NCBI GenBank assembly: GCA_051879515.1
Contig: JBJEME010000055.1
Span: forward strand, 1,961 to 65,960
DNA: 64,000 nt
From: Lachnospira sp.
GTDB taxonomy: Bacteria; Bacillota; Clostridia; Lachnospirales; Lachnospiraceae
Direction of reading: 5' to 3'
Shown here in pieces: positions 44,326-64,000 of the stretch (position 1 is the first letter of the stretch; the number at the start of each line of letters is the position of its first letter). The notes beneath the pieces are model-generated. The model worked only from the letters and a program-made list of their open reading frames with translations. It searched no databases and was not told where the DNA came from. Position numbers and translations under genes: made by a program.

Positions 44326-44354
44326 TTGACGTTAAATGTTGTAAATGGTAAACT
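44326..44354 (+). promoter_or_regulatory. SigA promoter of the polysaccharide locus
   Basis: TTGACG, 17 bp, extended -10 TGgTAAACT. Confidence 0.7.
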
Positions 44355-44410
44355 ATTATAGTTCTTATATTTGAACACTCTTGATATTCTGGAGAAAAGG
44401 GGATGCATAC

Positions 44411-45415: not shown

Positions 45416-45417
45416 AT

Positions 45418-46728: not shown

Positions 46729-46737
46729 GGAATAAAT

Positions 46738-47376
46738 ATGAATCCTTTGGATATATTGATAGATAGATACCCTGAGTTGGCGGGGCAAAGAGAGAATATA
46801 GATGCGGCTTTCCATATCCTGGAGGAGAGCTTTAACAAAGGTGGAAAACTGCTGGTTGCAGGGAATGGTGGTTCGGCTGCTGATGCAGAACACATTGTTG
46901 GAGAGCTGATGAAAGGCTTTGAGAACCCAAGAAAGTTAAGAGAAGATGAAAAGAAAAGACTGGAAGATGTAGATTTAAAACTGGGAAAGCTCCTGGGGGA
47001 GAATCTTCAGGGAGGACTTCCTGCAATTGCGCTTGATGGGCATTTTGCATTATCCACAGCATACATGAATGATTGCGAACCGTTGCTGTGTTTTGCCCAG
47101 CAGGTTAATGGATATGGAAGACAGGAGGATGTGTTTATGGGCATATCCACTTCCGGGAATTCCAAGAATATTATATATGCAGCAACTGTTGCCAAGGCGA
47201 AAGGCATGAAGGTTGTGGGACTGACCGGGGCAAAAGACAGTCAATTAAGTGAAATGGCTGACGTTACTATCCGTTCACCACAGACAAGAACCTATATGAT
47301 TCAGGAGCATCATTTGCCAATATATCATTGCTTATGTTTAATGTTGGAAGAAAGATTTTTTGGAGAGAAGGAATAA
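46738..47376 (+). CDS. gmhA: Phosphoheptose isomerase
   Basis: GNGGSAADAEH, GISTSGNSKN, QEHH...H. Confidence 0.92.
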   Translation: MNPLDILIDRYPELAGQRENIDAAFHILEESFNKGGKLLVAGNGGSAADAEHIVGELMKGFENPRKLREDEKKRLEDVDLKLGKLLGENLQGGLPAIALDGHFALSTAYMNDCEPLLCFAQQVNGYGRQEDVFMGISTSGNSKNIIYAATVAKAKGMKVVGLTGAKDSQLSEMADVTIRSPQTRTYMIQEHHLPIYHCLCLMLEERFFGEKE

Positions 47377-48114
47377 ATGGAGAAGCAACCACTTTTAAAT
47401 ACATATGTTAATAATATAGATATGGATGAGGCTATAGAAGTCATTGAAAAAATGATTGCTTCTGATGACAAATCTTATGTTGTAGCAATTAATGTGGATG
47501 TTGTGATTAAAATGGAGGAGGATTCTTATCTTAATAAGATTACCAATCAGGCAGATATGGTGCTTGTAGATGGTAAACCTCTGATTTGGATTTCCAGATA
47601 TTATAAAAGGCCTATCAAAGCAAAGATATCCGGTTCTGATTTGGTTCCGGCTCTCTGTGAAGTGGCAGCAAAAAAAGGCTATACAATATTTATCATCGGG
47701 GGAAAGGACGGAATTGCGGAGAAAGCAAGGAAAAACCTTAAAAAGAAGCATCCCGGGATTAATATTGTTGGAACCTATGCTCCGCCTTTTGGATTTGAGA
47801 AAGATGAAAAAGAATTAGAAACAATTAATGAAATGATAAGTAAGGTGCATCCGGATTTACTGATTGCCTGTTTTGGATGTCCAAAGCAAGAAAAATGGAT
47901 ATATGAGAATTACCGGAAATACGATGCTAAGGTGTCGATATGCGCAGGTGCAACTGTGGATTTTCTGGCTGGAAATGTGAAACGGTCACCCAGATGGATG
48001 AGCAATCATGGTTTAGAATGGTTCTATCGTTTTTTACAGGAACCAAAGCGAATGTTCAAAAGATACTTTGTTGATGATGTGAAAATTTTCAAACTGATAA
48101 GGAAATACAGGTGA
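47377..48114 (+). CDS. WecB/TagA/CpsF family glycosyltransferase
   Basis: NVD, DGKPL, SGSDL, GCPKQEKW, GLEWFYRFLQEPKRMFKRY. Confidence 0.93.
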   Translation: MEKQPLLNTYVNNIDMDEAIEVIEKMIASDDKSYVVAINVDVVIKMEEDSYLNKITNQADMVLVDGKPLIWISRYYKRPIKAKISGSDLVPALCEVAAKKGYTIFIIGGKDGIAEKARKNLKKKHPGINIVGTYAPPFGFEKDEKELETINEMISKVHPDLLIACFGCPKQEKWIYENYRKYDAKVSICAGATVDFLAGNVKRSPRWMSNHGLEWFYRFLQEPKRMFKRYFVDDVKIFKLIRKYR

Positions 48115-48118
48115 TTTT

Positions 48119-49207
48119 ATGAATTTATCAGAACAGAATATACTTTTCTTTACAAGAACGATGAAGCTTGGGGGTACAGAAAATGTAATTCTTCAATTGT
48201 GTGAAATCTTCAAGCCACTGGTTAATAATATTGTTGTATGTTCATGTGGCGGTGTCAATGTTGAGAAGCTTAATTCAATGGGGATTAAGCATTATGATAT
48301 TCCTGATATAGAAAATAAATCACCTTCAACGATTTATAAAGTATCAAAAACGGTTAAAGATGTTGTAAAAAGGGAGAACATAACGGTAATACACACACAT
48401 CACAGAATGGCAGCCTTTTACGTTTCTCTTTTGCGTTTATATAAGAACCGATATTTTATTAATACAAGTCATAATACATTTTCCGATAAAAAGAGTCTGA
48501 CCAGATATGTGTACAAGCATGCCAATATGATTGCATGCGGTGAAATGGTAAAGAAAAATCTGGTTAATTATTTCGGATTCAATGATGAGAAAGTTACTGT
48601 TATTCATAATGCGGTAAGGTCTTTTGATGGGGCTGTCGTTGAAGAACCGCTGATTACAGAACTTCATAAGAAGGGTTGTTTTGTTGTTGGAAACGTTGGA
48701 AGATTGTCAAAACAAAAAGGGATGGAGTATTATATTAAATCCATACCCGGTGTATTAAAGAAACATCCGGAAGCGAGGTTCATGGTTATTGGCAGCGGAG
48801 AGGACGAAGAGAAGCTTAAAGAACTGGTATGCACTCTTGGATTAGAGGATTATATATACTTTACCGGATACCGTTCTGATATTCAGAACATAATAGAACA
48901 GCTGGATTTAGTGGTTTTAAGTTCTCTATGGGAGGGACTGCCACTTACTCCAATAGAAGCATTTTCTGTTGGAAAGACCATAGTTGCCACTGCTGTCGAT
49001 GGCACTGTTGAAATAGTTGAGGATGGTGTTAATGGAGTGCTGGTGAGAGCAAAAGACAGCGAAGCGTTAACTGAGGGAATTAATTCATTGATTTCAAACG
49101 ATGCGTTAAGAAAAGAGTTTGAATATAATGCAAAGAAACAATTTGATTCGAAATTCTCTTTTAATCATTTGATTAAAAAATATACAACATACTATGAGGG
49201 CTTATAA
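48119..49207 (+). CDS. Glycosyltransferase family 4
   Basis: [28 protein letters not shown]. Confidence 0.93.
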
Positions 49208-49208
49208 A

Positions 49209-49787
49209 ATGGGAAGTGATAATCATACAAAAAGCTTAGGTAATACAATGCCAAAACCTGTTAAAATGGTTTATTATGCCGTTGTACTTTTTGGAAATGC
49301 AGTAATTAATAAGATTCCAAGCCGTCATCTGAGAAAATGGTTCTACCAGCTGATGGGTGCGAAGATAGGTAAGAATACTTATCCGTGCCGCCGGGTGGAA
49401 GTGCTGCTGCCTCAAGGCCTTACATTAGGAGATGGTGTGGCAGTCGGATGGTTTGCAGAACTTGATGCGCGTGGTGGAATCACAGTTGAACATGATACTA
49501 ATATTTCAAGTCATGTAAAAATGATTACCGGAAGTCATGATATTGATGATCCGTATTTTACGGCGGATTTTAAGCCTATTCATGTAGGACATCACTGCTG
49601 GATAGGAACAGGCGCCACTATACTTCAGGGTGTGACAATAGGAGATGGTGCAGTGGTTGCTGCAGGCGCTGTTGTAACTAAAGATGTTCCGGCTTATGAG
49701 GTATGGGGTGGAGTACCTGCTAAATTCATAAGGCAAAGGACACAGGATCTTCAATACAATATCGGGGCACCGCAGATTCTGCATTAA
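49209..49787 (+). CDS. Hexapeptide-repeat O-acyltransferase
   Basis: [30 protein letters not shown]...GGVPAK. Confidence 0.9.
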
Positions 49788-49834
49788 TTATTATGTGAAC
49801 TTTAAAAATGATTTAGGAGATTGTCAAAGAGTAT

Positions 49835-50554
49835 ATGATTCCAAAAGTAATTCATTATTGTTGGTTTGGTGGGAAACCATTACCGGATGATGTAAAGAAA
49901 TGCATAAAAACATGGGAAAAGTTTTGCCCGGATTATGAGATTAAGAGGTGGGATGAGAAGAATTTTGATGTTTACTCACACCCATTTATTAAAAGTGCAT
50001 ATGAGGCAAAGGCCTGGGCGTTTGTGTCGGATTATGCCCGACTTAAGATTGTTTATGATGAAGGTGGAATATATCTTGATACAGATGTAGAACTATTAAA
50101 GAATCTGGATTTCTTATTAGAATATAAATTCTATATCGGTGTGCAGCAGCAGGATAATTATTGCACTACGGGACTTGGATTTGGCGCAGAAAAAAACAGC
50201 CCGATAGTTGAATCGATGCTTAAGGTATACGATTCTCTGACATATGAAGATTCACAAAAAACCAATCTGTCCTGTCCTGCGTTGAATGATGGAGTGGTTA
50301 GAAGATTGGGAAATATTGATATAGATAATATAAATATTATTGACGGATGCTGCATCCTGCCTCCGCGCTATATGGATCCAATTGCTCCGGGCGACAATAA
50401 AAATCTTATATGCAATGATAGTATATCGATACACCATTATTCTGCATCATGGGTATCGGGATTTACAAGACTGAAAAGGAAATGTATAAGAGCTTTTGGA
50501 GAAGAGAGATATCATAAGATAAAGAAAATGATATATAAGAACAAAAATCTGTGA
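49835..50554 (+). CDS. Glycosyltransferase family 32 (DXD)
   Basis: MIPKVIHYCWFG, AFVSDYAR, GGIYLDTDVE, HHYSASW. Confidence 0.92.
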   Translation: MIPKVIHYCWFGGKPLPDDVKKCIKTWEKFCPDYEIKRWDEKNFDVYSHPFIKSAYEAKAWAFVSDYARLKIVYDEGGIYLDTDVELLKNLDFLLEYKFYIGVQQQDNYCTTGLGFGAEKNSPIVESMLKVYDSLTYEDSQKTNLSCPALNDGVVRRLGNIDIDNINIIDGCCILPPRYMDPIAPGDNKNLICNDSISIHHYSASWVSGFTRLKRKCIRAFGEERYHKIKKMIYKNKNL

Positions 50555-50576
50555 AATTAATCAGTAGTGGAGTAAA

Positions 50577-51809
50577 ATGATTAGATTAATTAGTTTTCTA
50601 AAAAATAAGGCGTTAGTTCCTTTATTATTTCTTTTTGTTATATTTTTTGATGTTATTTCTAATAATGTTATAGCAGGAAATTATTTGGACGAGTTTATAG
50701 CAATAATGTCGTTTGGTCTAATGCTTTTTTTGATAATAAAGAACAAAAGAGAAGTAGATAAAAAGAAAATTATGGTTGTGATGGCAGCTTTATTATCAAT
50801 ATTTATAGGCGTATTATCAAATATAATCTTTCGGTATGTGACTGATCCCGGGATAATTGTTCGCGATATTGTTGGACTTTATAAGTTCTTTGCAACTTTT
50901 TATGCAGTTGATTATATTTTTGATAATTACAATGCATATTACAAGAGAAGCCTGGTTGCGATTTCTAAAGTATTGATTGTTATAATAGCAGTATTTGGCT
51001 TTGTGTCGCTGTTTGTCAATATAGGGATGGGAAGTGATGTCCGCTACGGGTTAAGAAGCTATAAGTTTATATATAGCTTTTATAATGTCCTTGTTTATAA
51101 CATAGTATTGTTGATTGCTGTTATCTCATGTGAAAAGAAGAAAAATATTATATACTACATTCTTGGGTCATTTTCATTGATTCTGACTTTTAGAACAAAA
51201 GCCTTAATGGTAATAGGAATACTTCTGGTTATTTTCATCTTGAACCGCAAGGATGAGAATAATCTGATTTATGGAAAAATATCTAATAAGCTTAAAGTAA
51301 TAATACCAGCCGGGTTGGTGCTCTTTTTACTGGCAAAGGATAAGATTTTTCAATATATATCTTTTGGAAAATACAACAGTATCAGAATAGGAGCACTTGT
51401 TACGGGATTTGAAATTGCTCTGGATCATTTCCCTTTTGGGGCCGGCTTTGGAACGTATGGTTCAGATTTATCTTATTCATCAAATTCAAAGCTATATGAA
51501 TTATATAATGACATTAATTATGTTGACATGATGAATGCCAATCTGGGATATGCGTCTATGTCAGATACATTCTGGCCGGCTGTTTTTGCGCAAATAGGTT
51601 TAATCGGTCTTGTTATATATCTGTTTTGTATGGCTTCTGTTTTCCTTCATGTAAAGGAGAAAGAAGGTACGCCTGTTTGCTATAAGAATGCATGTATATT
51701 TATTTTGCTGTATATGTTAACTGTAAGCTTGTCTGAAGCAGTATTCATTAATCCGAGTGGAGTTACAGCACCAGTCATTATGGCTCTGCTATTAAATATA
51801 AAAGATTAA
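50577..51809 (+). CDS. wzy: Wzy-like polysaccharide polymerase
   Basis: Multi-TM, very AT-rich, FPFGAGFG loop, position within the locus. Confidence 0.7.
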   Translation: MIRLISFLKNKALVPLLFLFVIFFDVISNNVIAGNYLDEFIAIMSFGLMLFLIIKNKREVDKKKIMVVMAALLSIFIGVLSNIIFRYVTDPGIIVRDIVGLYKFFATFYAVDYIFDNYNAYYKRSLVAISKVLIVIIAVFGFVSLFVNIGMGSDVRYGLRSYKFIYSFYNVLVYNIVLLIAVISCEKKKNIIYYILGSFSLILTFRTKALMVIGILLVIFILNRKDENNLIYGKISNKLKVIIPAGLVLFLLAKDKIFQYISFGKYNSIRIGALVTGFEIALDHFPFGAGFGTYGSDLSYSSNSKLYELYNDINYVDMMNANLGYASMSDTFWPAVFAQIGLIGLVIYLFCMASVFLHVKEKEGTPVCYKNACIFILLYMLTVSLSEAVFINPSGVTAPVIMALLLNIKD

Positions 51810-51877
51810 AATGAATTAAAGACAGGTAGAAAAGAGCCAGATGAAATTATTCGGTTTCGGAAAGGAAGTTAGATAGA

Positions 51878-52936
51878 ATGAGGTTATATCAGATTATTGA
51901 AACTGCTGCAAAGTCGAATACTGCAGGTTCAAAGGCCGTTGACGATATCATAGATATTTCGAATGGTATGGGCTTTGAAAAAGTATACATTGTGAACAAT
52001 GAAATGAATCAAAGCCTGTTATCAAAGTGTCGCAGGCAGATGAATTGTCTATTAGAATGGAACAAGGCATACAAAGCTATAGAAGATGGTTCCGTAGTCC
52101 TTTTGCAGCATCCGTTTCACAGGAGACAAATTGGCAGGAAACATACTCTGATAAAATTAAAGCGTAAAAAGAATGTTAAGTTCATTTCTGTAATACATGA
52201 TGTTGAAGCATTGAGAAAAATAATGAATGATTCATACCATCAAAAAGAATTTTCCATGATGCTTCAGGCAGCTGATATTTTAATTGTACATAATGACAGT
52301 ATGGCGAAATGGTTTACAGATATTGGAGTTTCTGCCGACAAAATCGTTGTATTAAATATTTTTGATTATTTACATAACAATAAAAATAATATAATGCAAA
52401 AACCGGCATTTGAAAAAAAGATTATTATTGCGGGAAATCTTGATGTAAACAAAAGTCAATATATCGGACAGCTTGAACAACTTGAAAAAGTGGCAGTCCA
52501 GCTATATGGACCAAATTTTAATACAGAAATGTTACAATATTCTAATATAAGTTATGGCGGGAGCCTTCCACCGGATGAAGTACCACAGGTTCTTACATCT
52601 GGTTTTGGTCTTGTATGGGATGGCAACAGTATTGAAAAATGCAGTGGCAATACAGGAGAGTACTTAAGATATAACAATCCTCATAAACTGTCGCTATATT
52701 TGTCGTCGGGGTTACCTGTAGTAATATGGAAAGAAGCTGCAGAAGCGGAATTTGTAGTTAAGAATAACGTGGGAATTGTTGTGAATTCGCTGAAAGAATT
52801 ATCATCTGTTTTTGAAGGAATTACCGAGGAAGATTATAACGCTATGGCGAATAATGTTGAAAAGATAGCGGATAAACTAAGGAATGGGGAATATACTAAG
52901 ACCGCACTTAACAAAGCAATTAAACAGATTTCTTAA
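51878..52936 (+). CDS. Putative galactofuranosyltransferase (WbbI-like)
   Basis: NTAGSKA, IHDVE, FGLVWDG, YNNPHKLSLY. Directly upstream of glf. Confidence 0.8.
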   Translation: MRLYQIIETAAKSNTAGSKAVDDIIDISNGMGFEKVYIVNNEMNQSLLSKCRRQMNCLLEWNKAYKAIEDGSVVLLQHPFHRRQIGRKHTLIKLKRKKNVKFISVIHDVEALRKIMNDSYHQKEFSMMLQAADILIVHNDSMAKWFTDIGVSADKIVVLNIFDYLHNNKNNIMQKPAFEKKIIIAGNLDVNKSQYIGQLEQLEKVAVQLYGPNFNTEMLQYSNISYGGSLPPDEVPQVLTSGFGLVWDGNSIEKCSGNTGEYLRYNNPHKLSLYLSSGLPVVIWKEAAEAEFVVKNNVGIVVNSLKELSSVFEGITEEDYNAMANNVEKIADKLRNGEYTKTALNKAIKQIS

Positions 52937-53003
52937 TAATTCAGATAAAATTTATTAAAGTAATAATTATAGAATCTAGGTTGTATGAAATGGAGATAAG
53001 TAA

Positions 53004-54122
53004 ATGTACGATTATTTAGTAGTTGGCTCAGGATTATTCGGAGCAGTATTTGCCCAGCAGGCAAAAGCAAATGGAAAAAGTGTACTGGTTATAGACAAAC
53101 GAAATCATGTGGCTGGAAATGTTTATACAGAAAAAGTGGAGGGCATTAATGTCCACAAATACGGTGCACATATATTTCACACTAACAACAAAGAGGTTTG
53201 GGACTACGTTACAAAGTTTGCAACATTTAATCGTTTTACAAACTCTCCTGTAGCCAATTATAAGGGGGAACTTTATTCGCTTCCGTTTAATATGTACACT
53301 TTTAACAAGATGTGGGGAGTAGTTACACCTGAAGAGGCGATGGAGAAAATAGACGAACAGAGAAAAGAGATTATTGGAGAGCCAAAGAATCTTGAAGAGC
53401 AGGCAATATCTCTTGTAGGTCGTGATATTTATGAGAAGTTAATTAAGGGATATACTGAAAAACAGTGGGGAAGAGATTGTAAAGAACTCCCTTCTTTCAT
53501 TATCAAACGACTTCCGGTACGACTTACTTTTGATAATAATTACTTCAATGCCCTTTATCAGGGAATTCCTGTTGGCGGATACACTAAATTTGTAGAAAAT
53601 ATCCTTGATGGGATAGAAGTTAAATTGGGAGAGGACTACCTGGCTGATAAAGCTAAATGGGATGGAATTGCCGGGAAGGTTGTTTATACCGGGCCAATCG
53701 ATGCATATTTTAAATATTGCTTAGGCACATTGGAATATAGAAGTGTGCGATTTGAAAATGAAATTTTAGATAAGCCAAACTTCCAAGGCAATGCTGCTGT
53801 TAATTACACAGATAGAGAGACTCCGTGGACTAGAATTATAGAGCATAAATGGTTTGAATTTGGCAAGGATGAGAATGGTAACGAATTAGACAAGACTGTA
53901 ATAAGCAGGGAGTATAGCAGTGAGTGGAAGCCGGGAGACGAGCCATACTATCCGGTAAATGATGAAAAGAATGGGGAACTGTATAAGAAATACAAAGAGC
54001 TTGCCGATAAAGAAGAGAAAGTTATCTTTGGCGGAAGACTTGGTGAGTATAAGTACTATGACATGGATGCGGTAATTGCATCTGCGTTGGAGAAATGCAG
54101 GAGTGAATTGCATTATGAATAA
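53004..54122 (+). CDS. glf: UDP-galactopyranose mutase
   Basis: VGSGLFG, HKYGAHIFH, YFNALYQGIP, GDEPYYP, GRLGEYKYYDMD. Confidence 0.97.
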   Translation: MYDYLVVGSGLFGAVFAQQAKANGKSVLVIDKRNHVAGNVYTEKVEGINVHKYGAHIFHTNNKEVWDYVTKFATFNRFTNSPVANYKGELYSLPFNMYTFNKMWGVVTPEEAMEKIDEQRKEIIGEPKNLEEQAISLVGRDIYEKLIKGYTEKQWGRDCKELPSFIIKRLPVRLTFDNNYFNALYQGIPVGGYTKFVENILDGIEVKLGEDYLADKAKWDGIAGKVVYTGPIDAYFKYCLGTLEYRSVRFENEILDKPNFQGNAAVNYTDRETPWTRIIEHKWFEFGKDENGNELDKTVISREYSSEWKPGDEPYYPVNDEKNGELYKKYKELADKEEKVIFGGRLGEYKYYDMDAVIASALEKCRSELHYE

Positions 54123-55083
54123 TAACGAGCCGATTTTATCAATCTGTATTCCTACATATAACAGATCAGAGGCATTGAGGCAGTCACTGGAACGTTATGT
54201 TTCATGCGAAGGTTTTGATGATTCAGTGGAAATTGTTATATCAGATAATGCATCTACTGACAATACCGGAGAAATTGCCGCTGAATATGCTATGAAGTTT
54301 AAGAATATAAAGTATTATAGAAATGAGACAAACGTAAAAGATTCAAATTTTGAACTGGCGTTAAAAAGAGGAACCGGCAGATACTTGAAACTTCAAAATG
54401 ATGCGACACTGTTTGATGTTGATGCGTTGGTTTACATGAAAGACTGTATAAGCAGAAGTGATACGAACCGTCCGATTTTTTTTACTAACGATTTCATATA
54501 CACAAAGTTCAAAGGGCAGGCTAAGATAGAATGTAACTCCTTTGATGAATTTATTTCAGCATTATCAACTTATGTTACCGCAATTTCATGCTTTGGTGTG
54601 TGGAAAGAACAATTGAGTGACGTGCATAACTTTACAAAATATACAGAGTTAATGCTAAATCAGGATGACTGGACTTATCAGTTGTTGGAGAAATACGGCA
54701 AATGCACTTTGTTCAATAAACATTATTATAATGTGTTACCTAAAAATGGCGGAGGTTATCACTGGTTTAAAATTCATCTGGATAATTATTACAAAATAAT
54801 GCAGCCATATATTGATAAAGGTTTAATCGGCAAGAAAACCGTAAAGAAGGATAAGAAAAATCTTTTGTTTCATTTTATGCCGGAACTGAAACATACGTAT
54901 GTGTATCCTGTTAATGGTTGGGCGTTTGAAAAGAAGGGCACATTCAGGTATCTGTGGAAGTACTATAAAAAAGAATGGTATTTTTATGCGCTTATTATAA
55001 TATATCCATTAGCTTTTATTGTTCTAAATCCAATTCATTATGGTAAAAACTGGCTTAATAAACTTATCGCAAGGAAAAGGTAA
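54115..55083 (+). CDS. Glycosyltransferase family 2 (candidate dideoxyhexosyl transferase)
   Basis: LSICIPTYNR, IVISDNASTDNT, QNDD-like motif. Start at ATG 54115. Confidence 0.85.
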   Translation: MNNNEPILSICIPTYNRSEALRQSLERYVSCEGFDDSVEIVISDNASTDNTGEIAAEYAMKFKNIKYYRNETNVKDSNFELALKRGTGRYLKLQNDATLFDVDALVYMKDCISRSDTNRPIFFTNDFIYTKFKGQAKIECNSFDEFISALSTYVTAISCFGVWKEQLSDVHNFTKYTELMLNQDDWTYQLLEKYGKCTLFNKHYYNVLPKNGGGYHWFKIHLDNYYKIMQPYIDKGLIGKKTVKKDKKNLLFHFMPELKHTYVYPVNGWAFEKKGTFRYLWKYYKKEWYFYALIIIYPLAFIVLNPIHYGKNWLNKLIARKR

Positions 55084-55086
55084 TAT

Positions 55087-56535
55087 ATGTCAAATAATTT
55101 AGTGAAGAAGAATACTGTTATAAACATCATTAAGTCTTTATGTTCAATAATATTTCCGTTTATAACATTTCCATATATATCCAGGACATTGTTGCCTGAC
55201 AGTGTAGGAAAAATTAATTTTGGTAATTCTATTGTGAGTTATTTTTCATTGGTTGCCACATTGGGAATTGGCACATATGCCTTAAAAGAATGCTCAAGAA
55301 ACAGGAGCAATAGAGAAGACCTGTCAAAGACAGCCAGTGAAATTTTTTCCATTAACATCTGTTCAACTTTGTTTGCCTACATCGCATTGGGGATTACTTT
55401 ATTTTTCAGGAGCAGTCTGGATAATTACAAAGTATTGATTATAATACAAAGTTCAGTTATTTTATTTAATACCCTTGGTGCTGACTGGATAAATTCAGCA
55501 ATGGAGGATTTCACCTATATAACATTAAGGTCCGTGGGGGTTCAGGTATTATCAATTATTCTAATGTTTATTTTTATACACAGACCTGAAGATTATCTGA
55601 AATACGCACTTATTTCTGTAATTTCCTCAAGTGGTGGTAATATTCTTAATATATTTTACAGAAAGAAATATTGTGATATTCATTTTACATTTAAAATGAA
55701 TATAAAGAAGCACCTGCCACCCATACTTTTATTTTTTTCAATGATTCTTGCTCAGCAGATATATGTTAATTCAGATATTACAATTCTTGGAATTTATAAG
55801 GGTGATTATGAGGTTGGTTTATACAGCACTTCCGTAAAACTTTATAACATAGTTAATACTGTTATTGCATCAGTTTCAACAGTAGTGTGGCCACAAATTG
55901 CGGAAGCATATAAGAAACATAGCCAGGAAGATGTCAACAGACTGGCAAAATATTCTTTGAATTTTATTCTGTTGTTTGGACTTCCGTGTATAATAGGAAT
56001 TAATGTGGTTGCAAAAGAGATAATACTCTTAATAGCCGGAGAACAGTATTTAAACGCGTCAACGTCATTGCATATTCTCACGGTTGCTCTGCTTTTTTCC
56101 TTAATCGGAGGCTGGCTTGGAAGTACCAATTTCTTGCCAAACGGGAAGGAGAAAGTGTGTCTTATAGCTTCTTCGGTAGCTGCTGTAACTAATATAATAT
56201 TGAATTTTTTACTTATTCCCAACTGGGGATTGAATGCCGCGGCATTTACAACCGCTGTTTCTGAAGCTTTGGCATTGGTAGTTTTACTCATAAATTATGA
56301 TAAAGCCATGAAGATAACCGGAATATTTTCAATTCTAAAGGGACCTGTCATTGGCTGTGTATATATTGTCGCAGTCTCACTGATTGTCCGTTTAATAGTT
56401 TCTAATAGTATTGCAATTTGCCTGATTACTATTATTCTGAGTATAATGGGTTATATTGGGATACTTGTTTTAGTAAAAGATGAGTTTTTCCTGAGTTATT
56501 TAAGACCTATAATAAATAAACTGAAAAGGGGATAA
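55087..56535 (+). CDS. wzx: Wzx flippase
   Basis: About 12-14 TM segments, PYISRTL..G.INF, VGLYSTSVK, LIP.WG..AAA. Confidence 0.88.
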   Translation: MSNNLVKKNTVINIIKSLCSIIFPFITFPYISRTLLPDSVGKINFGNSIVSYFSLVATLGIGTYALKECSRNRSNREDLSKTASEIFSINICSTLFAYIALGITLFFRSSLDNYKVLIIIQSSVILFNTLGADWINSAMEDFTYITLRSVGVQVLSIILMFIFIHRPEDYLKYALISVISSSGGNILNIFYRKKYCDIHFTFKMNIKKHLPPILLFFSMILAQQIYVNSDITILGIYKGDYEVGLYSTSVKLYNIVNTVIASVSTVVWPQIAEAYKKHSQEDVNRLAKYSLNFILLFGLPCIIGINVVAKEIILLIAGEQYLNASTSLHILTVALLFSLIGGWLGSTNFLPNGKEKVCLIASSVAAVTNIILNFLLIPNWGLNAAAFTTAVSEALALVVLLINYDKAMKITGIFSILKGPVIGCVYIVAVSLIVRLIVSNSIAICLITIILSIMGYIGILVLVKDEFFLSYLRPIINKLKRG

Positions 56536-56538
56536 AAT

Positions 56539-57321
56539 ATGAAAGTAGTATTGTTAGCAGGTGGTTTTGGAACCAGAATATCAGAAGAATCAATATATAA
56601 ACCTAAGCCAATGGTTGAGATTGGCGGTAAACCGATACTCTGGCATATCATGAAGGAATATTCATATTATGGAATCAATGAATTTATAATATGTGCCGGT
56701 TATAAACAGGATTATATTAAAAAATGGTTTTCTGATTACTTCCTTTCCAACTCTGATGTTACATTTGATTATTGTAATGGAAAGAATGACATTACAATTC
56801 ATCAGTCTAATATAGAACCATGGAAAGTCACTGTCGTTGACACCGGTCTGCATACAATGACCGGTGGAAGAATAAAAAGAATTCAAAAGTATGTTGGTGA
56901 TGAACCATTCTTTATGACTTATGGAGACGGAGTGTGTGATGTTAATATGAACAAGCTTCTTGAATTCCATAAGTCACATGGAAAGATTGCAACATTAACG
57001 GCTGTGCTTCAGGATCAATCAAAAGGTGTACTTGATATTGGCGGGGATAATGCAGTAAAATCTTTTAGAGAAAAGAGTATTAATGATGGGGCACCAATTA
57101 ATGCCGGATATATGGTATTTGAACCTCAGATATTTGATTACATTGAAGGGGATACTACTGTGTTTGAAAAGGAGCCATTAGAGAAACTGGCAGCGGATGG
57201 ACAATTGATGTCATATATGCATAAAGGTTTCTGGCAGTGCATGGACAGTGTAAGAGAAAAGGCAATGCTTGAGAAGTTAATAGAAATGGACGAGGCTCCT
57301 TGGATGAAGTGGGAGAAATAA
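56539..57321 (+). CDS. rfbF: Glucose-1-phosphate cytidylyltransferase
   Basis: LAGGFGTRISEE, PKPMVEIG, TMTGGRIKR, TYGDG, FWQCMD. Confidence 0.95.
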   Translation: MKVVLLAGGFGTRISEESIYKPKPMVEIGGKPILWHIMKEYSYYGINEFIICAGYKQDYIKKWFSDYFLSNSDVTFDYCNGKNDITIHQSNIEPWKVTVVDTGLHTMTGGRIKRIQKYVGDEPFFMTYGDGVCDVNMNKLLEFHKSHGKIATLTAVLQDQSKGVLDIGGDNAVKSFREKSINDGAPINAGYMVFEPQIFDYIEGDTTVFEKEPLEKLAADGQLMSYMHKGFWQCMDSVREKAMLEKLIEMDEAPWMKWEK

Positions 57322-57322
57322 T

Positions 57323-58381
57323 ATGGATTTGAATTTTTATAAAGGAAAGAAAGTTTTAGTTACAGGTCATACAGGTTTCAAAGGAACATGGTTGTGCAGA
57401 ATTTTAGTGAATGCCGGAGCTGATGTCACAGGGTATTCCCTGGAGGCTCCTACTAACCCTTCCCTTTTTTCAATTGCAGGGTTGGAAGGAAAGATGAAAA
57501 GTATAATTGGCGATATAAGAGATTATGACCATCTCTTCAGTGTGTTTGAAGAAAGCCGGCCGGAAATAGTATTTCATCTTGCAGCACAGCCAATAGTAAG
57601 AGACAGCTATAAGGAACCTAAATATACGTATGAAACAAATGTCATGGGAACTGTTAATTTGCTTGAATGTGTAAGACATTTTACCTGTGTGAAGTCAGTA
57701 TTAAATGTTACCACAGACAAGGTTTACCACAATAATGAATGGTGTTGGGGTTATAGAGAGGATGAACCGTTAGATGGATTTGATCCGTACTCTAATTCGA
57801 AATCCTGTTCCGAGCTTGTAACACACAGTTACAAGAATAGTTTCTTTGATGAAAGAGAAATTGCGGTTTCTACTGCAAGAGCCGGTAATGTTATAGGAGG
57901 AGGAGACTTTGCCAATGACAGAATAATACCGGATTGTGTACGGGCAATGGAGAGAGGGGAGATTATAGGAGTGAGAAATCCATATTCAACCCGACCATAC
58001 CAGCATGTTTTAGAGCCATTAAGTGTATATCTTACTATTGCAGCAAAGCAGTATGAGAATAAGGATTATCAGGGGTATTATAATGTTGGACCTGATGATT
58101 GTGATTGTGTTACAACAGGAGATCTGGTTGACTTGTTCTGTTCAAAATGGGGCAGGGATGCCAGGTGGGAAAACCAGGCTGAAGCCAATGCACCGCATGA
58201 AGCTAATTTCTTAAAATTGGATTGCAGTAAAATAAAAAGTGTATTTGGATGGAAGCCAAGGTGGCACATTGACGAATGTATGGAAAAGGTTTGTGAGTTT
58301 TCCAAAGTGTGGTTAAAGGGCGGAGATGTACCGGCAGAAATGGACAAAGAGATAAATGATTTTTTTGAAGAGGAGAAATAA
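57323..58381 (+). CDS. rfbG: CDP-glucose 4,6-dehydratase
   Basis: TGHTGFKGTWL, HLAAQ, TTDKVY, YSNSK, RAGNVIGGGD, RPYQHVLEPL. Confidence 0.95.
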   Translation: MDLNFYKGKKVLVTGHTGFKGTWLCRILVNAGADVTGYSLEAPTNPSLFSIAGLEGKMKSIIGDIRDYDHLFSVFEESRPEIVFHLAAQPIVRDSYKEPKYTYETNVMGTVNLLECVRHFTCVKSVLNVTTDKVYHNNEWCWGYREDEPLDGFDPYSNSKSCSELVTHSYKNSFFDEREIAVSTARAGNVIGGGDFANDRIIPDCVRAMERGEIIGVRNPYSTRPYQHVLEPLSVYLTIAAKQYENKDYQGYYNVGPDDCDCVTTGDLVDLFCSKWGRDARWENQAEANAPHEANFLKLDCSKIKSVFGWKPRWHIDECMEKVCEFSKVWLKGGDVPAEMDKEINDFFEEEK

Positions 58382-58382
58382 G

Positions 58383-59735
58383 ATGGCAAGTTGGAAAAAT
58401 GAATCTGAAGCAAGAGAACAGATCAAGGCAATGGTTAGCGAGTATTATAAAGATTTTAAGGAACCGGTTGAATCTAAGGAAAACTTCAAACCGGGAGACC
58501 GTATCAGCTACGCTTCAAGAGTCTACGATGAAAAGGAGATGCAGGCGTTAACTGATGCAATGCTGGATTTCTGGCTTACCACAGGCAGATTTTCAAATGA
58601 ATTTGAAAAGAATTTTGCTGAATGGATTGGTGTAAAGTATGCACATCTTGTTAACAGCGGTTCTTCTGCCAATCTTATCGCGTTCAGCGTGTTAACGGCA
58701 CCTGAGCTCGGAGAAAGACAGATTAAACGAGGTGATGAGGTTATCACTGTTGCATGTGGTTTCCCAACAACAATAACTCCTATTCTTCAGTATGGTGCAG
58801 TACCTGTATTTGTGGATGTTACTGTTCCACAATACAACATCGACATAACTAAACTGGAAGAGGCATATTCTGAAAAGACAAAGGCTGTAATGATAGCACA
58901 TACACTCGGTAATCCATTTGATTTAGCTTCGGTAAAAGATTTTTGTGACAGACATAATTTATGGCTTGTTGAAGATAACTGTGATGCGCTCGGTACAAAG
59001 TACACAATCGATGGTGTGACTAAGTTTACAGGTACATGGGGAGATATCGGAACATCAAGCTTTTATCCTCCTCATCATATGACTATGGGTGAAGGCGGAT
59101 GTGTTTACACTGATAATCCAACATTAAATCGCCTTATATTATCTTACCGTGACTGGGGAAGAGATTGTATCTGTGTATCCGGTCAGGATAACCTTTGCGG
59201 ACATCGTTGGGATGGTCAGTTTGGCGAGTTGCCTAAGGGTTATGATCATAAATATACTTATTCCCACTTCGGATATAACTTGAAGGTCACAGATCTTCAG
59301 GCAGCAGTAGGAGTAGAGCAGTTGAAGAAATTCCCATCTTTCATTGAAAGAAGAAAGCATAACTGGTCAAGGCTTCACAAGGCATTAGAGGATGTACAGG
59401 ATAGAATTATTCTTCCGGAACCAGCTCCAAATAGTGATCCATCATGGTTTGGTTTCTTAATATCTGTGCGCCCTGAAACAGGATTGAATAGAAATGAAGT
59501 AACTAAATATATTGAGAGCAAAAATGTTCAGACTCGTTTATTATTCTCAGGAAATATTATCAAACAGCCATGTTTTGATGAAATAAGGGGAACAGAAGCC
59601 TACAGAGTTGTTGGCGATTTAAGCAGCAGCGATTTTGTTGTGAACAATACATTCTGGGTTGGAGTATACCCAGGTATGACTGATGCCATGATTGATTACA
59701 TGGCTGAAGTGATTAAGGATGCTGTTGGGAAATAA
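58383..59735 (+). CDS. rfbH: CDP-4-keto-6-deoxyglucose 3-dehydratase (E1, DdhC/RfbH)
   Basis: EDNCDALG; SFYPPHH with His at the usual PLP-Lys position; DWGRDCIC...C Fe-S cysteines; GYDHKY. Confidence 0.92.
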   Translation: MASWKNESEAREQIKAMVSEYYKDFKEPVESKENFKPGDRISYASRVYDEKEMQALTDAMLDFWLTTGRFSNEFEKNFAEWIGVKYAHLVNSGSSANLIAFSVLTAPELGERQIKRGDEVITVACGFPTTITPILQYGAVPVFVDVTVPQYNIDITKLEEAYSEKTKAVMIAHTLGNPFDLASVKDFCDRHNLWLVEDNCDALGTKYTIDGVTKFTGTWGDIGTSSFYPPHHMTMGEGGCVYTDNPTLNRLILSYRDWGRDCICVSGQDNLCGHRWDGQFGELPKGYDHKYTYSHFGYNLKVTDLQAAVGVEQLKKFPSFIERRKHNWSRLHKALEDVQDRIILPEPAPNSDPSWFGFLISVRPETGLNRNEVTKYIESKNVQTRLLFSGNIIKQPCFDEIRGTEAYRVVGDLSSSDFVVNNTFWVGVYPGMTDAMIDYMAEVIKDAVGK

Positions 59736-59759
59736 TATATCAGTTACGGAGGAGTTATC

Positions 59760-61586
59760 ATGAAACAGAGATTGGCGGATTATGTTGCTGATTTTCTTGT
59801 TGCACATGGAGTCAAAGATGTATTCAGTGTGGTTGGCGGCGGTGCCATGCACCTGAATGATGCACTCGGGCACAAGAAGGGGTTGAAGGTAACATACAAT
59901 CATCATGAACAGGCGTGTGCAATGGCGGCGGAAGCGTATGCCAGACTTGATAATAGAATTGCTGCAGTTTGCGTTACTACCGGGCCGGGAGGAACCAATG
60001 CACTGACAGGTGTTGTTGGAGGGTGGCTGGATTCTATTCCAATGTTCGTTGTTTCCGGTCAGGTTCGTTACGATACAACATCACGCTATGCATTGCAATT
60101 CACGGAGACACCGTTGCGCGCAATGGGGGACCAGGAGTATGACATCGTCAAATCTGTGGCTCCAATGACAAAATATGCAGTTATGATTGAAAACCCCAAT
60201 ACAATTCGCTATCATTTAGAGAAAGCCTGGCACCTTGCCACAACCGGTCGTCCGGGACCTGTATGGATTGATATCCCTTTGAATTATCAGGGCGGCTATA
60301 TTGAGACAGATAGTCTTTTGGGATACGATCCAAAAGAAGATGATTCTAAACTTCCTCCTGCTGTTGACGAAACGACAATACAGACAGTTCTTGAAAAAAT
60401 TCGTAATGCTAAGCGTCCGGTTTTTCACGCAGGATATGGAATCCGCTTATCCGGAGGATATGAAGCATTTCGCTCTGTAGCAGAAAAATTAAATATTCCT
60501 ATTGTAACATACTGGAATGCGGTTGATTTAATTGAAGATGATAATCCTTTTTATTGCGGACGCGCCGGTAATATGGGGGATCGTCCCGGAAACTGGGCAA
60601 TCCAGAATGCCGATTTGATTCTTGCGGTAGGTACACGTATTTCTATCCGTCAGGTAGGGTATAATTGGAAAACCTGGGCTCGTGAGGCTGAGGTTATAAT
60701 GGTTGATATTGATCAGGCAGAATTAAAGAAGCCGACACTTCATGTGGAAATGCCTATTTGGGCAGATGCGAAAGATTTTCTCACGAAAATGAATAATTTG
60801 ATGTCAGAGAAAGTATTTAATGGCGAAGATTGGATTAAGGTTTGTCAGGGATGGAAAAAGAATTATCCGGTTGTTCAGAAAAGACAGTGGGAGGAAAACG
60901 GTTCTACTGCCAATGTATATGCGTTTGTGGATTATTTGAGCTCAAGACTTCCACAGAACAGTCTGACAGCCGTATCAAACGGTGCATGCTGTGTAGTTGG
61001 TAATCAGACCTATCATATTAAGAGAGGAAGCAGAATGGCTAACAATAGTGCAGTTGCTTCCATGGGGTACGGTTTGCCTGCGGCCATTGGAACATGTATA
61101 GGTGGTGGCAGAAAAGAAACTATATGTCTTGAGGGCGATGGCAGTATTATGATGAACCTTCAGGAACTGCAGACGATATTAACCAATAAACTTCCAATCA
61201 AAATATTCCTGATTAATAATAATGGATATCACTCTATCAGAATTACACAGACCAACTTATTTAGTAAGAATTTTGTGGGTATAGGGGAAGAATCCGGAGA
61301 TTTGTCCTTCCCTGAGTTTAAAAAGATTGCAGAAGCATTCGGGTATAGATATTTCTGTGCTCACAGTAATTCAGAAATGAAAGAAGTTGTGGATGAAGTA
61401 CTAAAGCTTGATGGACCTGTATTTACAGAGATATTCACAGATACAGACCAGGTATGGGAACCAAAGAGCAGTACAAAGCGTTTGGAAGATGGAACACTGG
61501 TTAGTCCGCCACTTGAGGATCTGGCACCATTTTTACCTAGGGAAGAGCTGAAAGAGCAGATGTTCATTCCTATGATTGAGGAATAA
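59760..61586 (+). CDS. ThDP-dependent acetolactate-synthase-like enzyme (YerE-like)
   Basis: HHEQ, TTGPG.TN, SMGYGLP, GDGS...NN ThDP motif. Embedded in the CDP-sugar operon. Confidence 0.88.
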   Translation: MKQRLADYVADFLVAHGVKDVFSVVGGGAMHLNDALGHKKGLKVTYNHHEQACAMAAEAYARLDNRIAAVCVTTGPGGTNALTGVVGGWLDSIPMFVVSGQVRYDTTSRYALQFTETPLRAMGDQEYDIVKSVAPMTKYAVMIENPNTIRYHLEKAWHLATTGRPGPVWIDIPLNYQGGYIETDSLLGYDPKEDDSKLPPAVDETTIQTVLEKIRNAKRPVFHAGYGIRLSGGYEAFRSVAEKLNIPIVTYWNAVDLIEDDNPFYCGRAGNMGDRPGNWAIQNADLILAVGTRISIRQVGYNWKTWAREAEVIMVDIDQAELKKPTLHVEMPIWADAKDFLTKMNNLMSEKVFNGEDWIKVCQGWKKNYPVVQKRQWEENGSTANVYAFVDYLSSRLPQNSLTAVSNGACCVVGNQTYHIKRGSRMANNSAVASMGYGLPAAIGTCIGGGRKETICLEGDGSIMMNLQELQTILTNKLPIKIFLINNNGYHSIRITQTNLFSKNFVGIGEESGDLSFPEFKKIAEAFGYRYFCAHSNSEMKEVVDEVLKLDGPVFTEIFTDTDQVWEPKSSTKRLEDGTLVSPPLEDLAPFLPREELKEQMFIPMIEE

Positions 61587-61713
61587 ATGAAGTAAATGTC
61601 AGCTAAAGCAGACCGTGCTCGGCTCGCAAAGCAAAGCAAGTCCATCAAGGATTGAGGAATGTAGGGAGTTGGAAGCGGACTTGTCCGCTTTGATCAAAGA
61701 GGAGGCAGGCAAG

Positions 61714-62622
61714 ATGAGGAGAGCAATTATAACGGGTGCAACCGGTGCGATTGGAAGTGCGTTAATTAGGGAATTGATTGAGAATAATATAGAGACACTT
61801 GTTTTTTGCCGTGAGGGTTCAGAAAGAAACAGACAGATACCACAACATCCGCTTATTTCAATAAAATACTGCTCTTTGGAGCAGCTTGAATCCATAGAAA
61901 ATGATACCGGGAAAGAATATGATGTGTTTTATCATTTTGCATGGGAAGGAACAACAGGTTCTGCCAGAAATGATATGTACCTTCAGAATCAAAATGTACG
62001 GTATTCATTAGATGCAGTAGGAGCAGCGAACAGATTTGGATGTAAGAAGTTTATTGGAGCAGGGTCTCAGGCCGAATATGGAAGAGTAGAAGGAAATTTA
62101 AAACCGGATACAAAGACTTCTCCGGAAATGGGATATGGCATTGCAAAATTATGTGCAGGTAATATGACTCGGGAATATGCGCATAGTCTTAAAATGGAAC
62201 ACAACTGGGTAAGAATACTTAGTGTATATGGCCCTAATGATGGGGTACAGAGTATGGTAATGTCAACAATAGCAAAGCTGCAGGCGGGGGAAGTACCTCA
62301 GTTTACCAAGGGTGAGCAAATGTGGGATTATCTGTACAGCGGTGATGCTGCCAAAGCGTTCCGATTAATTGGTGAAAAAGGAATTGATGGAAAAGTATAT
62401 GTTCTTGGAAGCGGACAGGCCAAACCATTAAAACAGTATATTGAAGAATTGAGGGATGTTGTTGCTCCGGGAGCTGAACTTGGTATAGGCAATGTTCCAT
62501 ACAGTACAAAGCAGGTGATGCATTTATGTGCTGATATCTCAGAGTTAGAAGATGACACAGGATGGAAACCTGAAACAAAGTTTGAAGATGGAATCCGGAA
62601 GATTATACTTTCACAGATGTAA
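61714..62622 (+). CDS. NAD-dependent epimerase/dehydratase/reductase (extended SDR; candidate YerF-like or RfbJ/RfbS-like)
   Basis: TGATGAIG, GSQAEYG, YGIAK. Start at ATG 61714 after GGAGG. Confidence 0.88.
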   Translation: MRRAIITGATGAIGSALIRELIENNIETLVFCREGSERNRQIPQHPLISIKYCSLEQLESIENDTGKEYDVFYHFAWEGTTGSARNDMYLQNQNVRYSLDAVGAANRFGCKKFIGAGSQAEYGRVEGNLKPDTKTSPEMGYGIAKLCAGNMTREYAHSLKMEHNWVRILSVYGPNDGVQSMVMSTIAKLQAGEVPQFTKGEQMWDYLYSGDAAKAFRLIGEKGIDGKVYVLGSGQAKPLKQYIEELRDVVAPGAELGIGNVPYSTKQVMHLCADISELEDDTGWKPETKFEDGIRKIILSQM

Positions 62623-62883: not shown

Positions 62884-64000
62884 ATGAAAAAGCAAGTAAA
62901 AAAATTCTTAAGCATGTTACTTGTAAGCGTAATGGCTCTTGCATCAATTCTTACATTTGATGTTGAACCAGTACACGCAGCTTCTGCTTCAATAACAGAA
63001 GCAGCCGGTGATCTTGAGACCGCATACGTTGAGTGGACACCTGTATCAGGGGCTTCCGGATACAACGTATATGTTAAGGCAGCCAGTGCAGCTGATTCAG
63101 CTTATGTTCAGCTTGATGATGAACTTATAAGAAAGTATCCATCATATATGAGAGCTGATGCTGTAGGTTTAAAGGCTGGCGATTATGTGATGAAGGTAGT
63201 GCCTCTTAATGATGGCGTTGAAGATACAGCTTCTGCAATGGTGACAGAAAAGCTCACTGTTCTTGCACATGACAGAAGCGGATTTGCTTTTGTGAATGGA
63301 ACATCATCAGGTGCTTATAATGATGATGGAACATTAAAGAGCAATGCAAAAGTGTTCTATATGACAGAAAGCACCAAGGGAGGATTTGTAGCAGCTGTTG
63401 ATGCAGCAGATGCCGGTAATTATCCTTTAGCTGTTCGTTTGATTGGAAACATCACAGACTTTACAGGTCTTGAGTCTGGAGACATGCTTATCGGAGAATG
63501 TAAATTTGGTCTTACTATAGAAGGTATTGGCGAGGATGCGACAGCTAATGGCTGGGGTGTTCGTATTAAGAATAGTAGTAATGTTGAAGTAAGAAATCTT
63601 GGATTTATGAACTGCGATAGTACAGAGGGTGATAGTGCAGGTCTTCAACAGGGTAATGACCATGTGTGGATTCATAACTGCGATTTCTTCTATGGTGCTG
63701 CAGGTTCTGATGCTGACCAGGTTAAGGGCGATGGTGCACTTGATACAAAGAAGTCTCAGTATGTAACTCATTCATATAATCACTTCTATGACACTGGAAA
63801 GACTCACTTAAATGGTAACGGTGATACAACACTTAACTATATCACTTATCACCATAATTGGTATGATCACTCGGATTCGCGTCATCCGCTTGTAAGATGT
63901 TCTTCAGCAGTACATGTTTACAATAACTTGTATGATGGTGTATCTAAGTATGGTATGATTTGCAGAATTGGTGCTTCTATCTTTTCAGAAGCAAATTATT
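62884..64000 (+). CDS. Secreted pectate lyase (PL1), 3'-truncated by the window edge; absent from the ORF track
   Basis: AAAGGAG RBS, signal peptide (..VHA), open frame to the end, NVEVRNL, VWIHNCDF, DGALD, TYHHNWY, RHPLVR (RxPxxR), HVYNNLY. Confidence 0.9.
   Translation, partial: MKKQVKKFLSMLLVSVMALASILTFDVEPVHAASASITEAAGDLETAYVEWTPVSGASGYNVYVKAASAADSAYVQLDDELIRKYPSYMRADAVGLKAGDYVMKVVPLNDGVEDTASAMVTEKLTVLAHDRSGFAFVNGTSSGAYNDDGTLKSNAKVFYMTESTKGGFVAAVDAADAGNYPLAVRLIGNITDFTGLESGDMLIGECKFGLTIEGIGEDATANGWGVRIKNSSNVEVRNLGFMNCDSTEGDSAGLQQGNDHVWIHNCDFFYGAAGSDADQVKGDGALDTKKSQYVTHSYNHFYDTGKTHLNGNGDTTLNYITYHHNWYDHSDSRHPLVRCSSAVHVYNNLYDGVSKYGMICRIGASIFSEANY

Follow-up and report, generated by a model that had tools for sequence, protein, structure and literature searches.

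Sugars of the 3,6-dideoxy type with a carbon branch occur in the O antigens of Gram-negative bacteria, in mycobacterial lipooligosaccharides and in actinomycete antibiotics. The type of reaction that introduces the branch has reportedly been published for YerE in 1998, for ErwE in 2022 and for JanthE in 2024. In the synthesis of CDP-yersiniose A by Yersinia pseudotuberculosis O:VI (DdhA-D, YerE, YerF), a thiamine diphosphate (ThDP)-dependent enzyme adds an acyl unit at C-4 of CDP-4-keto-3,6-dideoxyglucose and the branch is then reduced with NAD(P)H, the donor of YerE being pyruvate (PMC9306805, PMC12247030). ErwE, from the erwiniose cluster of Pectobacterium atrosepticum (ErwE, ErwF, ErwJ, ErwI), rejects pyruvate and needs 4-hydroxy-2-oxo acids supplied by ErwI/ErwJ (PMC9306805). 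JanthE is a YerE-like enzyme that joins 2-oxo acids to non-activated ketones, and its physiological substrate has been described as unknown (PMC12188165, PMC12247030). Here we describe a predicted pathway of this kind in a stretch of 64,000 nucleotides from Lachnospira sp. (contig JBJEME010000055.1, positions 1,961 to 65,960; hereafter the window). A five-gene cassette at 56539-62622 of the window would provide a CDP-activated, C4-branched 3,6-dideoxyhexose for a Wzx/Wzy-type surface heteropolysaccharide, which would also carry heptose, galactofuranose and O-acetyl groups. Judged from the sequences, some C4-branched CDP-3,6-dideoxyhexose is probably made, and a two-carbon, yersiniose-type 4-C-(1-hydroxyethyl)-3,6-dideoxyhexose is put forward tentatively as the product.

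The sequence-only reading had reported rfbF, rfbG, rfbH, a ThDP enzyme and a short-chain dehydrogenase/reductase (SDR) in one run after wzx, and this run was found to be present and uninterrupted, with all genes on the forward (+) strand. The first gene, rfbF/ddhA (56539-57321), encodes a glucose-1-phosphate cytidylyltransferase, which makes CDP-glucose (TIGR02623, 361 bits, cut-off 300). It is followed by rfbG/ddhB for CDP-glucose 4,6-dehydratase (57323-58381; TIGR02622, 444 bits, cut-off 278) and by rfbH/ddhC (58356-59735; NF011936, 708 bits, cut-off 423) for E1, the pyridoxamine phosphate (PMP)- and [2Fe-2S]-dependent CDP-4-keto-6-deoxyglucose 3-dehydrase. The fourth gene, with a GGAGG ribosome-binding site ahead of its start, encodes a protein of 608 residues with TPP_enzyme_N, M and C domains (59760-61586), predicted to be a JanthE/YerE-like ThDP-dependent carboligase. 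The fifth encodes an extended SDR of 302 residues from the Epimerase family (61714-62622), which is predicted to reduce the side-chain ketone.

The same order of cytidylyltransferase, 4,6-dehydratase, RfbH, ThDP enzyme and SDR was seen at the JanthE locus (L088:6805-14724, AMWD01000002.1), where genes for an NTP-transferase (rfbF-like), a 4,6-dehydratase (rfbG-like), a DegT/RfbH protein, JanthE and an SDR are followed by those for an acetaldehyde dehydrogenase and a DmpG-type aldolase. The last two genes are absent from the window, and the JanthE host is a Gram-negative betaproteobacterium. The succession of ThDP enzyme, SDR, dehydrogenase and aldolase at this locus matches that of the erwiniose cluster (ErwE-ErwF-ErwJ-ErwI), a layout which suggests that JanthE physiologically acts on CDP-4-keto-3,6-dideoxyglucose and a 4-hydroxy-2-oxo acid. 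The window resembles the erwiniose cluster in having a ThDP enzyme and then a reductase beside the genes for CDP-4-keto-3,6-dideoxyglucose, but lacks genes of the ErwI/ErwJ type. With Yersinia O:VI it shares the same predicted logic and the lack of donor-making genes; it differs in having no DdhD/E3, in its Gram-positive host and in the presumed Wzx/Wzy polysaccharide setting, compared with the lipopolysaccharide O antigen of Yersinia.

Against solved structures, the best match of the ThDP enzyme was JanthE (8rph), aligned end to end with 433 bits (E 2e-128), followed by 5ahk (228 bits) and acetohydroxyacid synthase (AHAS) I of E. coli (6lpi, 223 bits). We take 5ahk to be PpYerE, as is probable. 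The solved JanthE entries are PDB 8rph, 8rpi and 8rpj; 8rph is described as JanthE (PMC12188165), and its sequence is 100% identical to an annotated protein of Janthinobacterium sp. HH01. Sequence identity was 38% to JanthE, 29% to 5ahk and 28% to AHAS I; the enzyme is thus about as distant from 5ahk as from AHAS. A maximum-likelihood tree was built from JanthE, 5ahk, E. coli AHAS I, the IlvB of the host genome and 81 Firmicute sequences. JanthE and the Firmicute sequences formed one clade (100% support in the Shimodaira-Hasegawa-like approximate likelihood ratio test, SH-aLRT), with AHAS and 5ahk each outside; the two AHAS sequences, from E. coli and from the host genome, lay on one side of the tree (99% SH-aLRT), and 5ahk, JanthE and the Firmicutes on the other. 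By identity and by tree, the ThDP enzyme is thus placed in the JanthE clade and not demonstrably in the YerE/PpYerE clade. Of the expected kinship with YerE rather than IlvB, the separation from IlvB held up; the enzyme joins JanthE, while 5ahk stays outside.

In the window's enzyme, the catalytic Glu50 belongs to the motif HHEQ, and a GDG at residue 459 is followed by NN. The enzyme shares with JanthE a C-terminal tail of about 40 residues, DGTLVSPPLEDL, which is missing in AHAS and 5ahk, and it keeps Y297 and K567, two hot-spot residues at which JanthE was engineered. It differs from JanthE in its canonical GDG, where JanthE has CDG, and in the hot spots V121, Y268 and P293, where every Firmicute sequence has D, M and R, respectively. 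With IlvB and AHAS I it has in common the three-domain ThDP fold, the catalytic Glu and GDG...NN; the C-terminal tail, the lack of a small subunit and of an ilv context, and the separate branch in the tree set it apart.

An alternative is that the enzyme is an ordinary AHAS, or has an unrelated role, and that the SDR is a 4-ketoreductase, so that the product would be a 3,6-dideoxyhexose without a branch, like abequose or paratose. Public annotations often label relatives 'acetolactate synthase large subunit', AHAS models match the protein at E 1e-97, its identity to AHAS I is approximately 28%, and CDP-abequose and CDP-paratose synthases are of the SDR's size. Yet the enzyme scored below every AHAS equivalog cut-off, the best being TIGR00118 with 326 bits against a cut-off of 538. 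Neither a small subunit nor any ilv gene was found among its neighbours, and rfbH and the SDR gene flank it. A true IlvB is encoded elsewhere in the host genome (contig C106; TIGR00118, 752 bits), beside ilvD and leuB and 25-26% identical to the window's enzyme, so the housekeeping AHAS role is already filled. Function as an acetolactate synthase was rejected on these scores and on the true IlvB, and the clustering with JanthE points the same way.

The distribution of the enzyme also fits a housekeeping function badly. In 300 evenly drawn Clostridia genomes (ThDP enzyme at E <= 1e-100, RfbH at E <= 1e-120), 17 encoded both proteins, two the ThDP enzyme only, four RfbH only and 277 neither, which amounts to 19 genomes with the ThDP enzyme and 21 with RfbH (Fisher p = 4e-22 for co-occurrence, a statistic that ignores phylogeny). 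Altogether we regard the unbranched product as very improbable. Of the 21 genomes that encode an E1-type RfbH, 17 contain the JanthE-type enzyme as well, and the 3,6-dideoxyhexose pathway of Clostridia seems to feed mostly carbon branching and not sugars of the abequose or paratose type. The proposal of 'yersiniose or a related branched sugar' is therefore backed by the non-AHAS scores, by the JanthE clade and locus order, and by the co-occurrence with RfbH.

Conservation of the cassette was followed in a scan for relatives with one genome per species, which gave at least 593 stretches. The best 80, all from Bacillota and 68-86% identical, were used, and their 966 open reading frames (ORFs) were clustered for neighbour counts. 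These loci include Lachnospiraceae, Oscillospiraceae, Acutalibacteraceae, Dubosiella muris and Desulfosporosinus. Cultured strains that carry a relative are Eubacterium xylanophilum ATCC 35991, Gemmiger formicilis An723, Dubosiella muris NM09_H32, Ruminococcaceae bacterium KHP2 and Desulfosporosinus sp. BG, the last two being of the aldolase type described below. The most frequent neighbour of the ThDP gene was rfbH (51 of the 80 loci), followed by rfbF and the SDR gene (42 each), rfbG and a gene for a GtrB-like glycosyltransferase of family 2 (GT2; 41 each), GtrA (21) and a 525-residue HMGL-like aldolase (14). The recurrent module reads rfbF-rfbG-rfbH-(GtrA)-ThDP-SDR-(GtrB-like GT2). From its GtrA and GtrB-like genes, the sugar appears to be loaded onto a polyprenol-phosphate carrier in most relatives; the window and two of the loci (L026, L017) have a GT2-wzx arrangement instead. 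All 16 genomes without rfbH within 8 kb of the ThDP gene have an rfbH orthologue elsewhere (62-79% identical). A homologue from Zoogloeaceae, outside this phylum, has genes for NTP-transferase, 4,6-dehydratase and DegT proteins ahead of it in the same order.

These results indicate that the cassette is common in gut Clostridia. The ThDP tree ignores taxonomy, with Desulfosporosinus and Dubosiella (Erysipelotrichaceae) standing among Lachnospiraceae and Oscillospiraceae at 80-86% identity, which suggests that the cassette has spread horizontally among gut Bacillota. Among more distant ThDP relatives, five proteins (P0135, P0138, P0165, P0242 and P0152) were fusions, with either an N-terminal extension of about 250 residues (in two of them a cupin) or a C-terminal HAD phosphatase. 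The N-terminally extended proteins had been considered as RfbF fusions, which would have counted as Rosetta-stone evidence, and this was rejected when the extensions turned out to be cupin or unannotated.

In RfbH itself, His takes the position of the aminotransferase Lys that binds pyridoxal phosphate (SFYPPHHMTMGEGG), and a 2Fe-2S Cys motif, C209...C271-x-C273-x7-C281, is present. The exchange of Lys for His and the four-Cys motif are hallmarks of enzymes of the E1/SpnQ type, whose electrons must come from outside (PMC8987622). The RfbH encoded beside JanthE has 50% identity with that of the window and shares both the His and the Cys motifs. In Yersinia, E1 depends on the reductase E3 (PMC8987622), and a gap in the proposed pathway is that no FNR-type E3 gene (DdhD/RfbI/AscD) was found in the window's cluster. 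A search of the host genome with PF00175 (NAD_binding_1) returned only two proteins, both on other contigs. A crude motif scan of the 966 ORFs of the 80 loci, which a divergent reductase could escape, likewise found no E3-type reductase near the cassettes.

Taken at face value, these absences could mean that deoxygenation is left unfinished and that CDP-4-keto-6-deoxyglucose, or some other keto sugar, is what the ThDP enzyme acts on; the product would then be a 6-deoxyhexose with a branch and not a 3,6-dideoxyhexose. We consider this improbable. RfbH is 60-80% identical across the relatives, keeps the catalytic His and all four Cys and co-occurs tightly with the ThDP enzyme, a pattern hard to square with an idle RfbH. 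No adjacent E3 was seen in the JanthE and Zoogloeaceae loci either. Moreover, SpnQ carries out 3-deoxygenation with general ferredoxin/flavodoxin reductase pairs and has no dedicated E3 (PMC8987622). As an E1-type 3-dehydrase dependent on PMP and 2Fe-2S, SpnQ offers a model for an RfbH that works without E3; it differs in its TDP-sugar substrate (TDP-4-keto-2,6-dideoxyglucose) and its actinomycete spinosyn pathway, whereas the RfbH of the window belongs to the CDP-sugar equivalog. Anaerobic Clostridia are rich in ferredoxin and flavodoxin carriers. Since no E3 is encoded, we infer by analogy with SpnQ that the 2Fe-2S cluster of RfbH would be re-reduced by the general ferredoxin/flavodoxin system.

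With a branched 3,6-dideoxyhexose as the preferred product, the question becomes which 2-oxo acid supplies the branch. No aldolase or other keto-acid synthase gene was found anywhere in 44.4-62.6 kb of the window. In the related loci, the 525-residue HMGL-like aldolase directly follows the ThDP gene in 14 of 80, sometimes accompanied by a PfkB kinase or HAD phosphatases, and 66 are without it. This Firmicute protein is unrelated to the erwiniose-type aldolase, being 24% identical to the DmpG type. In one of the related loci (L028:8001-13412), two ThDP paralogues of 614 and 604 residues flank the HMGL-like aldolase inside a single rfbFGH-SDR-GtrB cassette. The aldolase was then surveyed in 40 Clostridia genomes, 19 positive and 21 negative for the ThDP enzyme. 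The full-length protein was found in six of the 19 positive genomes, always beside the ThDP gene, and in none of the 21 negative ones. It is thus an accessory of a subset of carriers, and it was not found in the window's genome.

Several observations weigh against a pyruvate-fed, two-carbon branch and favour the same pathway with another donor, such as 2-oxobutyrate, a 4-hydroxy-2-oxo acid or a 2-keto-3-deoxy sugar acid made in trans, which would give a longer or functionalised branch of the erwiniose or caryophyllose type. JanthE is promiscuous, converts pyruvate poorly and performs better with longer donors (PMC12247030), its locus carries the erwiniose-type aldolase and acetaldehyde dehydrogenase genes, and ErwE, as noted above, does not accept pyruvate at all. 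A more general point against the main reading is the low identity of the window's enzyme to JanthE (38%) and to 5ahk (29%). The aldolase-adjacent ThDP enzymes are 79-85% identical to the window's enzyme, and the sequence closest to it in the tree (L004, with 85% identity) directly adjoins an HMGL-like aldolase. Across the 80 loci, no alignment column separates aldolase-adjacent from other ThDP enzymes, the hot spots of the active site do not vary, and the aldolase label is scattered over the ThDP tree, with 11 changes needed. Without a separating residue and with invariant hot spots, donor choice is unreadable from sequence.

The host genome also has a 337-residue aldolase-like gene, 32-35% identical to the 525-residue protein, on contig C21 in another polysaccharide locus. 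In Ruminococcaceae bacterium KHP2 (L085:7739-13414, JIAE01000001.1), the nearest relative of the window's enzyme (85% identity) belongs to a small operon that also comprises a 610-residue Metalloenzyme-DeoC aldolase fusion, an 84-residue ORF and a 521-residue HMGL-like protein. This operon lies far from that genome's rfbH and is possibly a donor-synthesis module.

Against a special donor stands the absence of a donor-making gene from the window's cluster. The aldolase-like gene of contig C21 belongs to a different polysaccharide locus and lacks the C-terminal half of the 525-residue protein. The full-length aldolase occurs in a minority of carriers and always in cis, so that genes for a special donor appear to travel with the cassette. 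Contig C21 (L083:212-19809) otherwise carries rmlA, rmlB, rmlD, several transferases and a LicD/Mf1-like phosphotransferase; its gene for a PseF-like cytidylyltransferase is directly followed by the aldolase-like gene, which resembles 4-hydroxy-2-oxovalerate aldolase. Since the 525-residue aldolase is missing from cluster and genome alike, a common metabolite, in the simplest case pyruvate, is favoured over other donors here; a non-pyruvate donor is judged less likely, though by no means remote. With no donor-making aldolase in the cluster, the two-carbon branch is also the most economical reading.

The SDR contains the motifs GATGAIG (GxxGxxG) and YGIAK (YxxxK). A GTG at 61615 had been listed as its start and was rejected as a mechanical ORF start only; the start is almost certainly the ATG at 61714, given an AGGAGG box 8 nt before it and homologues of 303-311 residues. 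In related loci, the homologues mostly lie directly downstream of the ThDP gene. By analogy with YerF and ErwF, we infer that the SDR would reduce the side-chain ketone with NAD(P)H. A point against this role is the low identity of the protein (22%, E 9e-6) to the SDR encoded next to JanthE; its best PDB match reached 72 bits, and it has no close solved relative.

The sequence-only reading had also named the GT2 at 54115-55083 as the transferase of the branched sugar. This protein (Glycos_transf_2, with a C-terminal membrane anchor; start probably at ATG 54115) is encoded directly before the Wzx-type repeat-unit flippase (55087-56535), which has about 10 hydrophobic segments and matches Polysacc_synt, Polysacc_synt_3 and MurJ. 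Counterparts 25-35% identical to the GT2 are present in four ThDP loci (L017, L026, L036, L043), in two of them directly before wzx-rfbF, and the window's Wzx has 49% identity with the one that adjoins this module in L017. The adjacency and these counterparts are retained as a weak indication that GT2 54115 may transfer the branched sugar.

In the pathway that we propose, RfbF would form CDP-glucose and RfbG would convert it to CDP-4-keto-6-deoxyglucose, as their family assignments show. RfbH would take off the 3-hydroxyl group, presumably with electrons delivered by the general carriers discussed above. From its homology to JanthE and its conserved context, the ThDP enzyme would then decarboxylate a 2-oxo acid and join the resulting acyl carbanion to the ketone at C-4, which would become a tertiary alcohol, and the SDR, on account of its conserved adjacency, would reduce the new side-chain ketone. 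Finally a glycosyltransferase, possibly GT2 54115, would place the sugar on the lipid-linked repeat unit, which Wzx would flip.

The heptose, galactofuranose and O-acylation genes that had been claimed nearby were found upstream (44381-54122), all on the + strand. The genes predicted for a nucleotide-activated D-glycero-D-manno-heptose (44381-47376), assigned with NCBIfam and Pfam, encode an HddA-like kinase (from 44381), a nucleotidyltransferase-GmhB fusion (from 45418) and GmhA (from 46738); most of these matches do not reach the equivalog cut-offs and leave the precise heptose undefined. They are followed at 47377-50554 by genes for a WecG/TagA-family glycosyltransferase, a GT4 enzyme, a WcaF-like O-acetyltransferase (49194) and a GT32-like glycosyltransferase. 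A polytopic membrane protein of 410 residues (50577-51809), with about 10 hydrophobic segments and a big loop at residues 253-331, had no match in the family libraries searched and is, from its position only, a candidate for the Wzy polymerase. Galactofuranose would be provided and transferred by the gene pair at 51878-54122, which consists of a WbbI-like galactofuranosyltransferase (from 51878; NF007326, 402 bits, slightly below the cut-off of 420) and glf for UDP-galactopyranose mutase (from 53004; TIGR00031, 418 bits, cut-off 304). No initiating phosphotransferase was found within 44-63 kb, where the WecG/TagA-type enzyme of the second step is located.

The polysaccharide cluster is bordered on both sides. 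Directly upstream lies a gene for a 314-residue protein with a Listeria-Bacteroides repeat (Flg_new; 43261-44205), and a promoter-like site, TTGACG-17-TAAACT with a TG, is present at 44326-44354. On the other side, a pectate lyase gene (Pectate_lyase_4, beta-helix) starts at 62884 and runs off the end of the window (62884-63999). The SDR gene is therefore the last of the cluster, and the pectate lyase gene indicates that the host is probably pectinolytic.

In the literature covered by our search, no report of yersiniose-type or other carbon-branched 3,6-dideoxy sugars from Firmicutes was found. The kind of pathway has been published, and more than 200 YerE-like clusters are stated to have been mined in silico (cited in PMC12247030); the finding therefore extends only the host range and the frequency of such pathways. 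The window is a new example of a known enzyme type with no new chemistry, distinguished by its presumed Wzx/Wzy setting and by having no donor-making gene. Taken jointly, the data allow a broader reading, which we hold to be possible and still rather doubtful. In it, the CDP-3,6-dideoxyhexose pathway of gut Clostridia would run almost always into ThDP-dependent branching and without E3. About 6% of Clostridia species would then carry, on their surface glycans, a widespread epitope that chemical analysis has so far missed, made of C-branched dideoxy octoses or of longer sugars. The window would represent the first Firmicute Wzx/Wzy heteropolysaccharide to combine a yersiniose-type sugar, heptose, galactofuranose and O-acetyl groups, and one nearly invariant enzyme might take either pyruvate or aldolase-made donors depending on its accessory genes.

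If the proposed pathway is true, E1-type 3-deoxygenation would routinely run on general cellular reductants in these bacteria. The highly conserved Firmicute enzymes would enlarge the small set of ketone-accepting ThDP biocatalysts for chiral tertiary alcohols. Many gut commensal Clostridia would display carbon-branched sugars of this type on their surface, where they may serve as immune epitopes or phage receptors.

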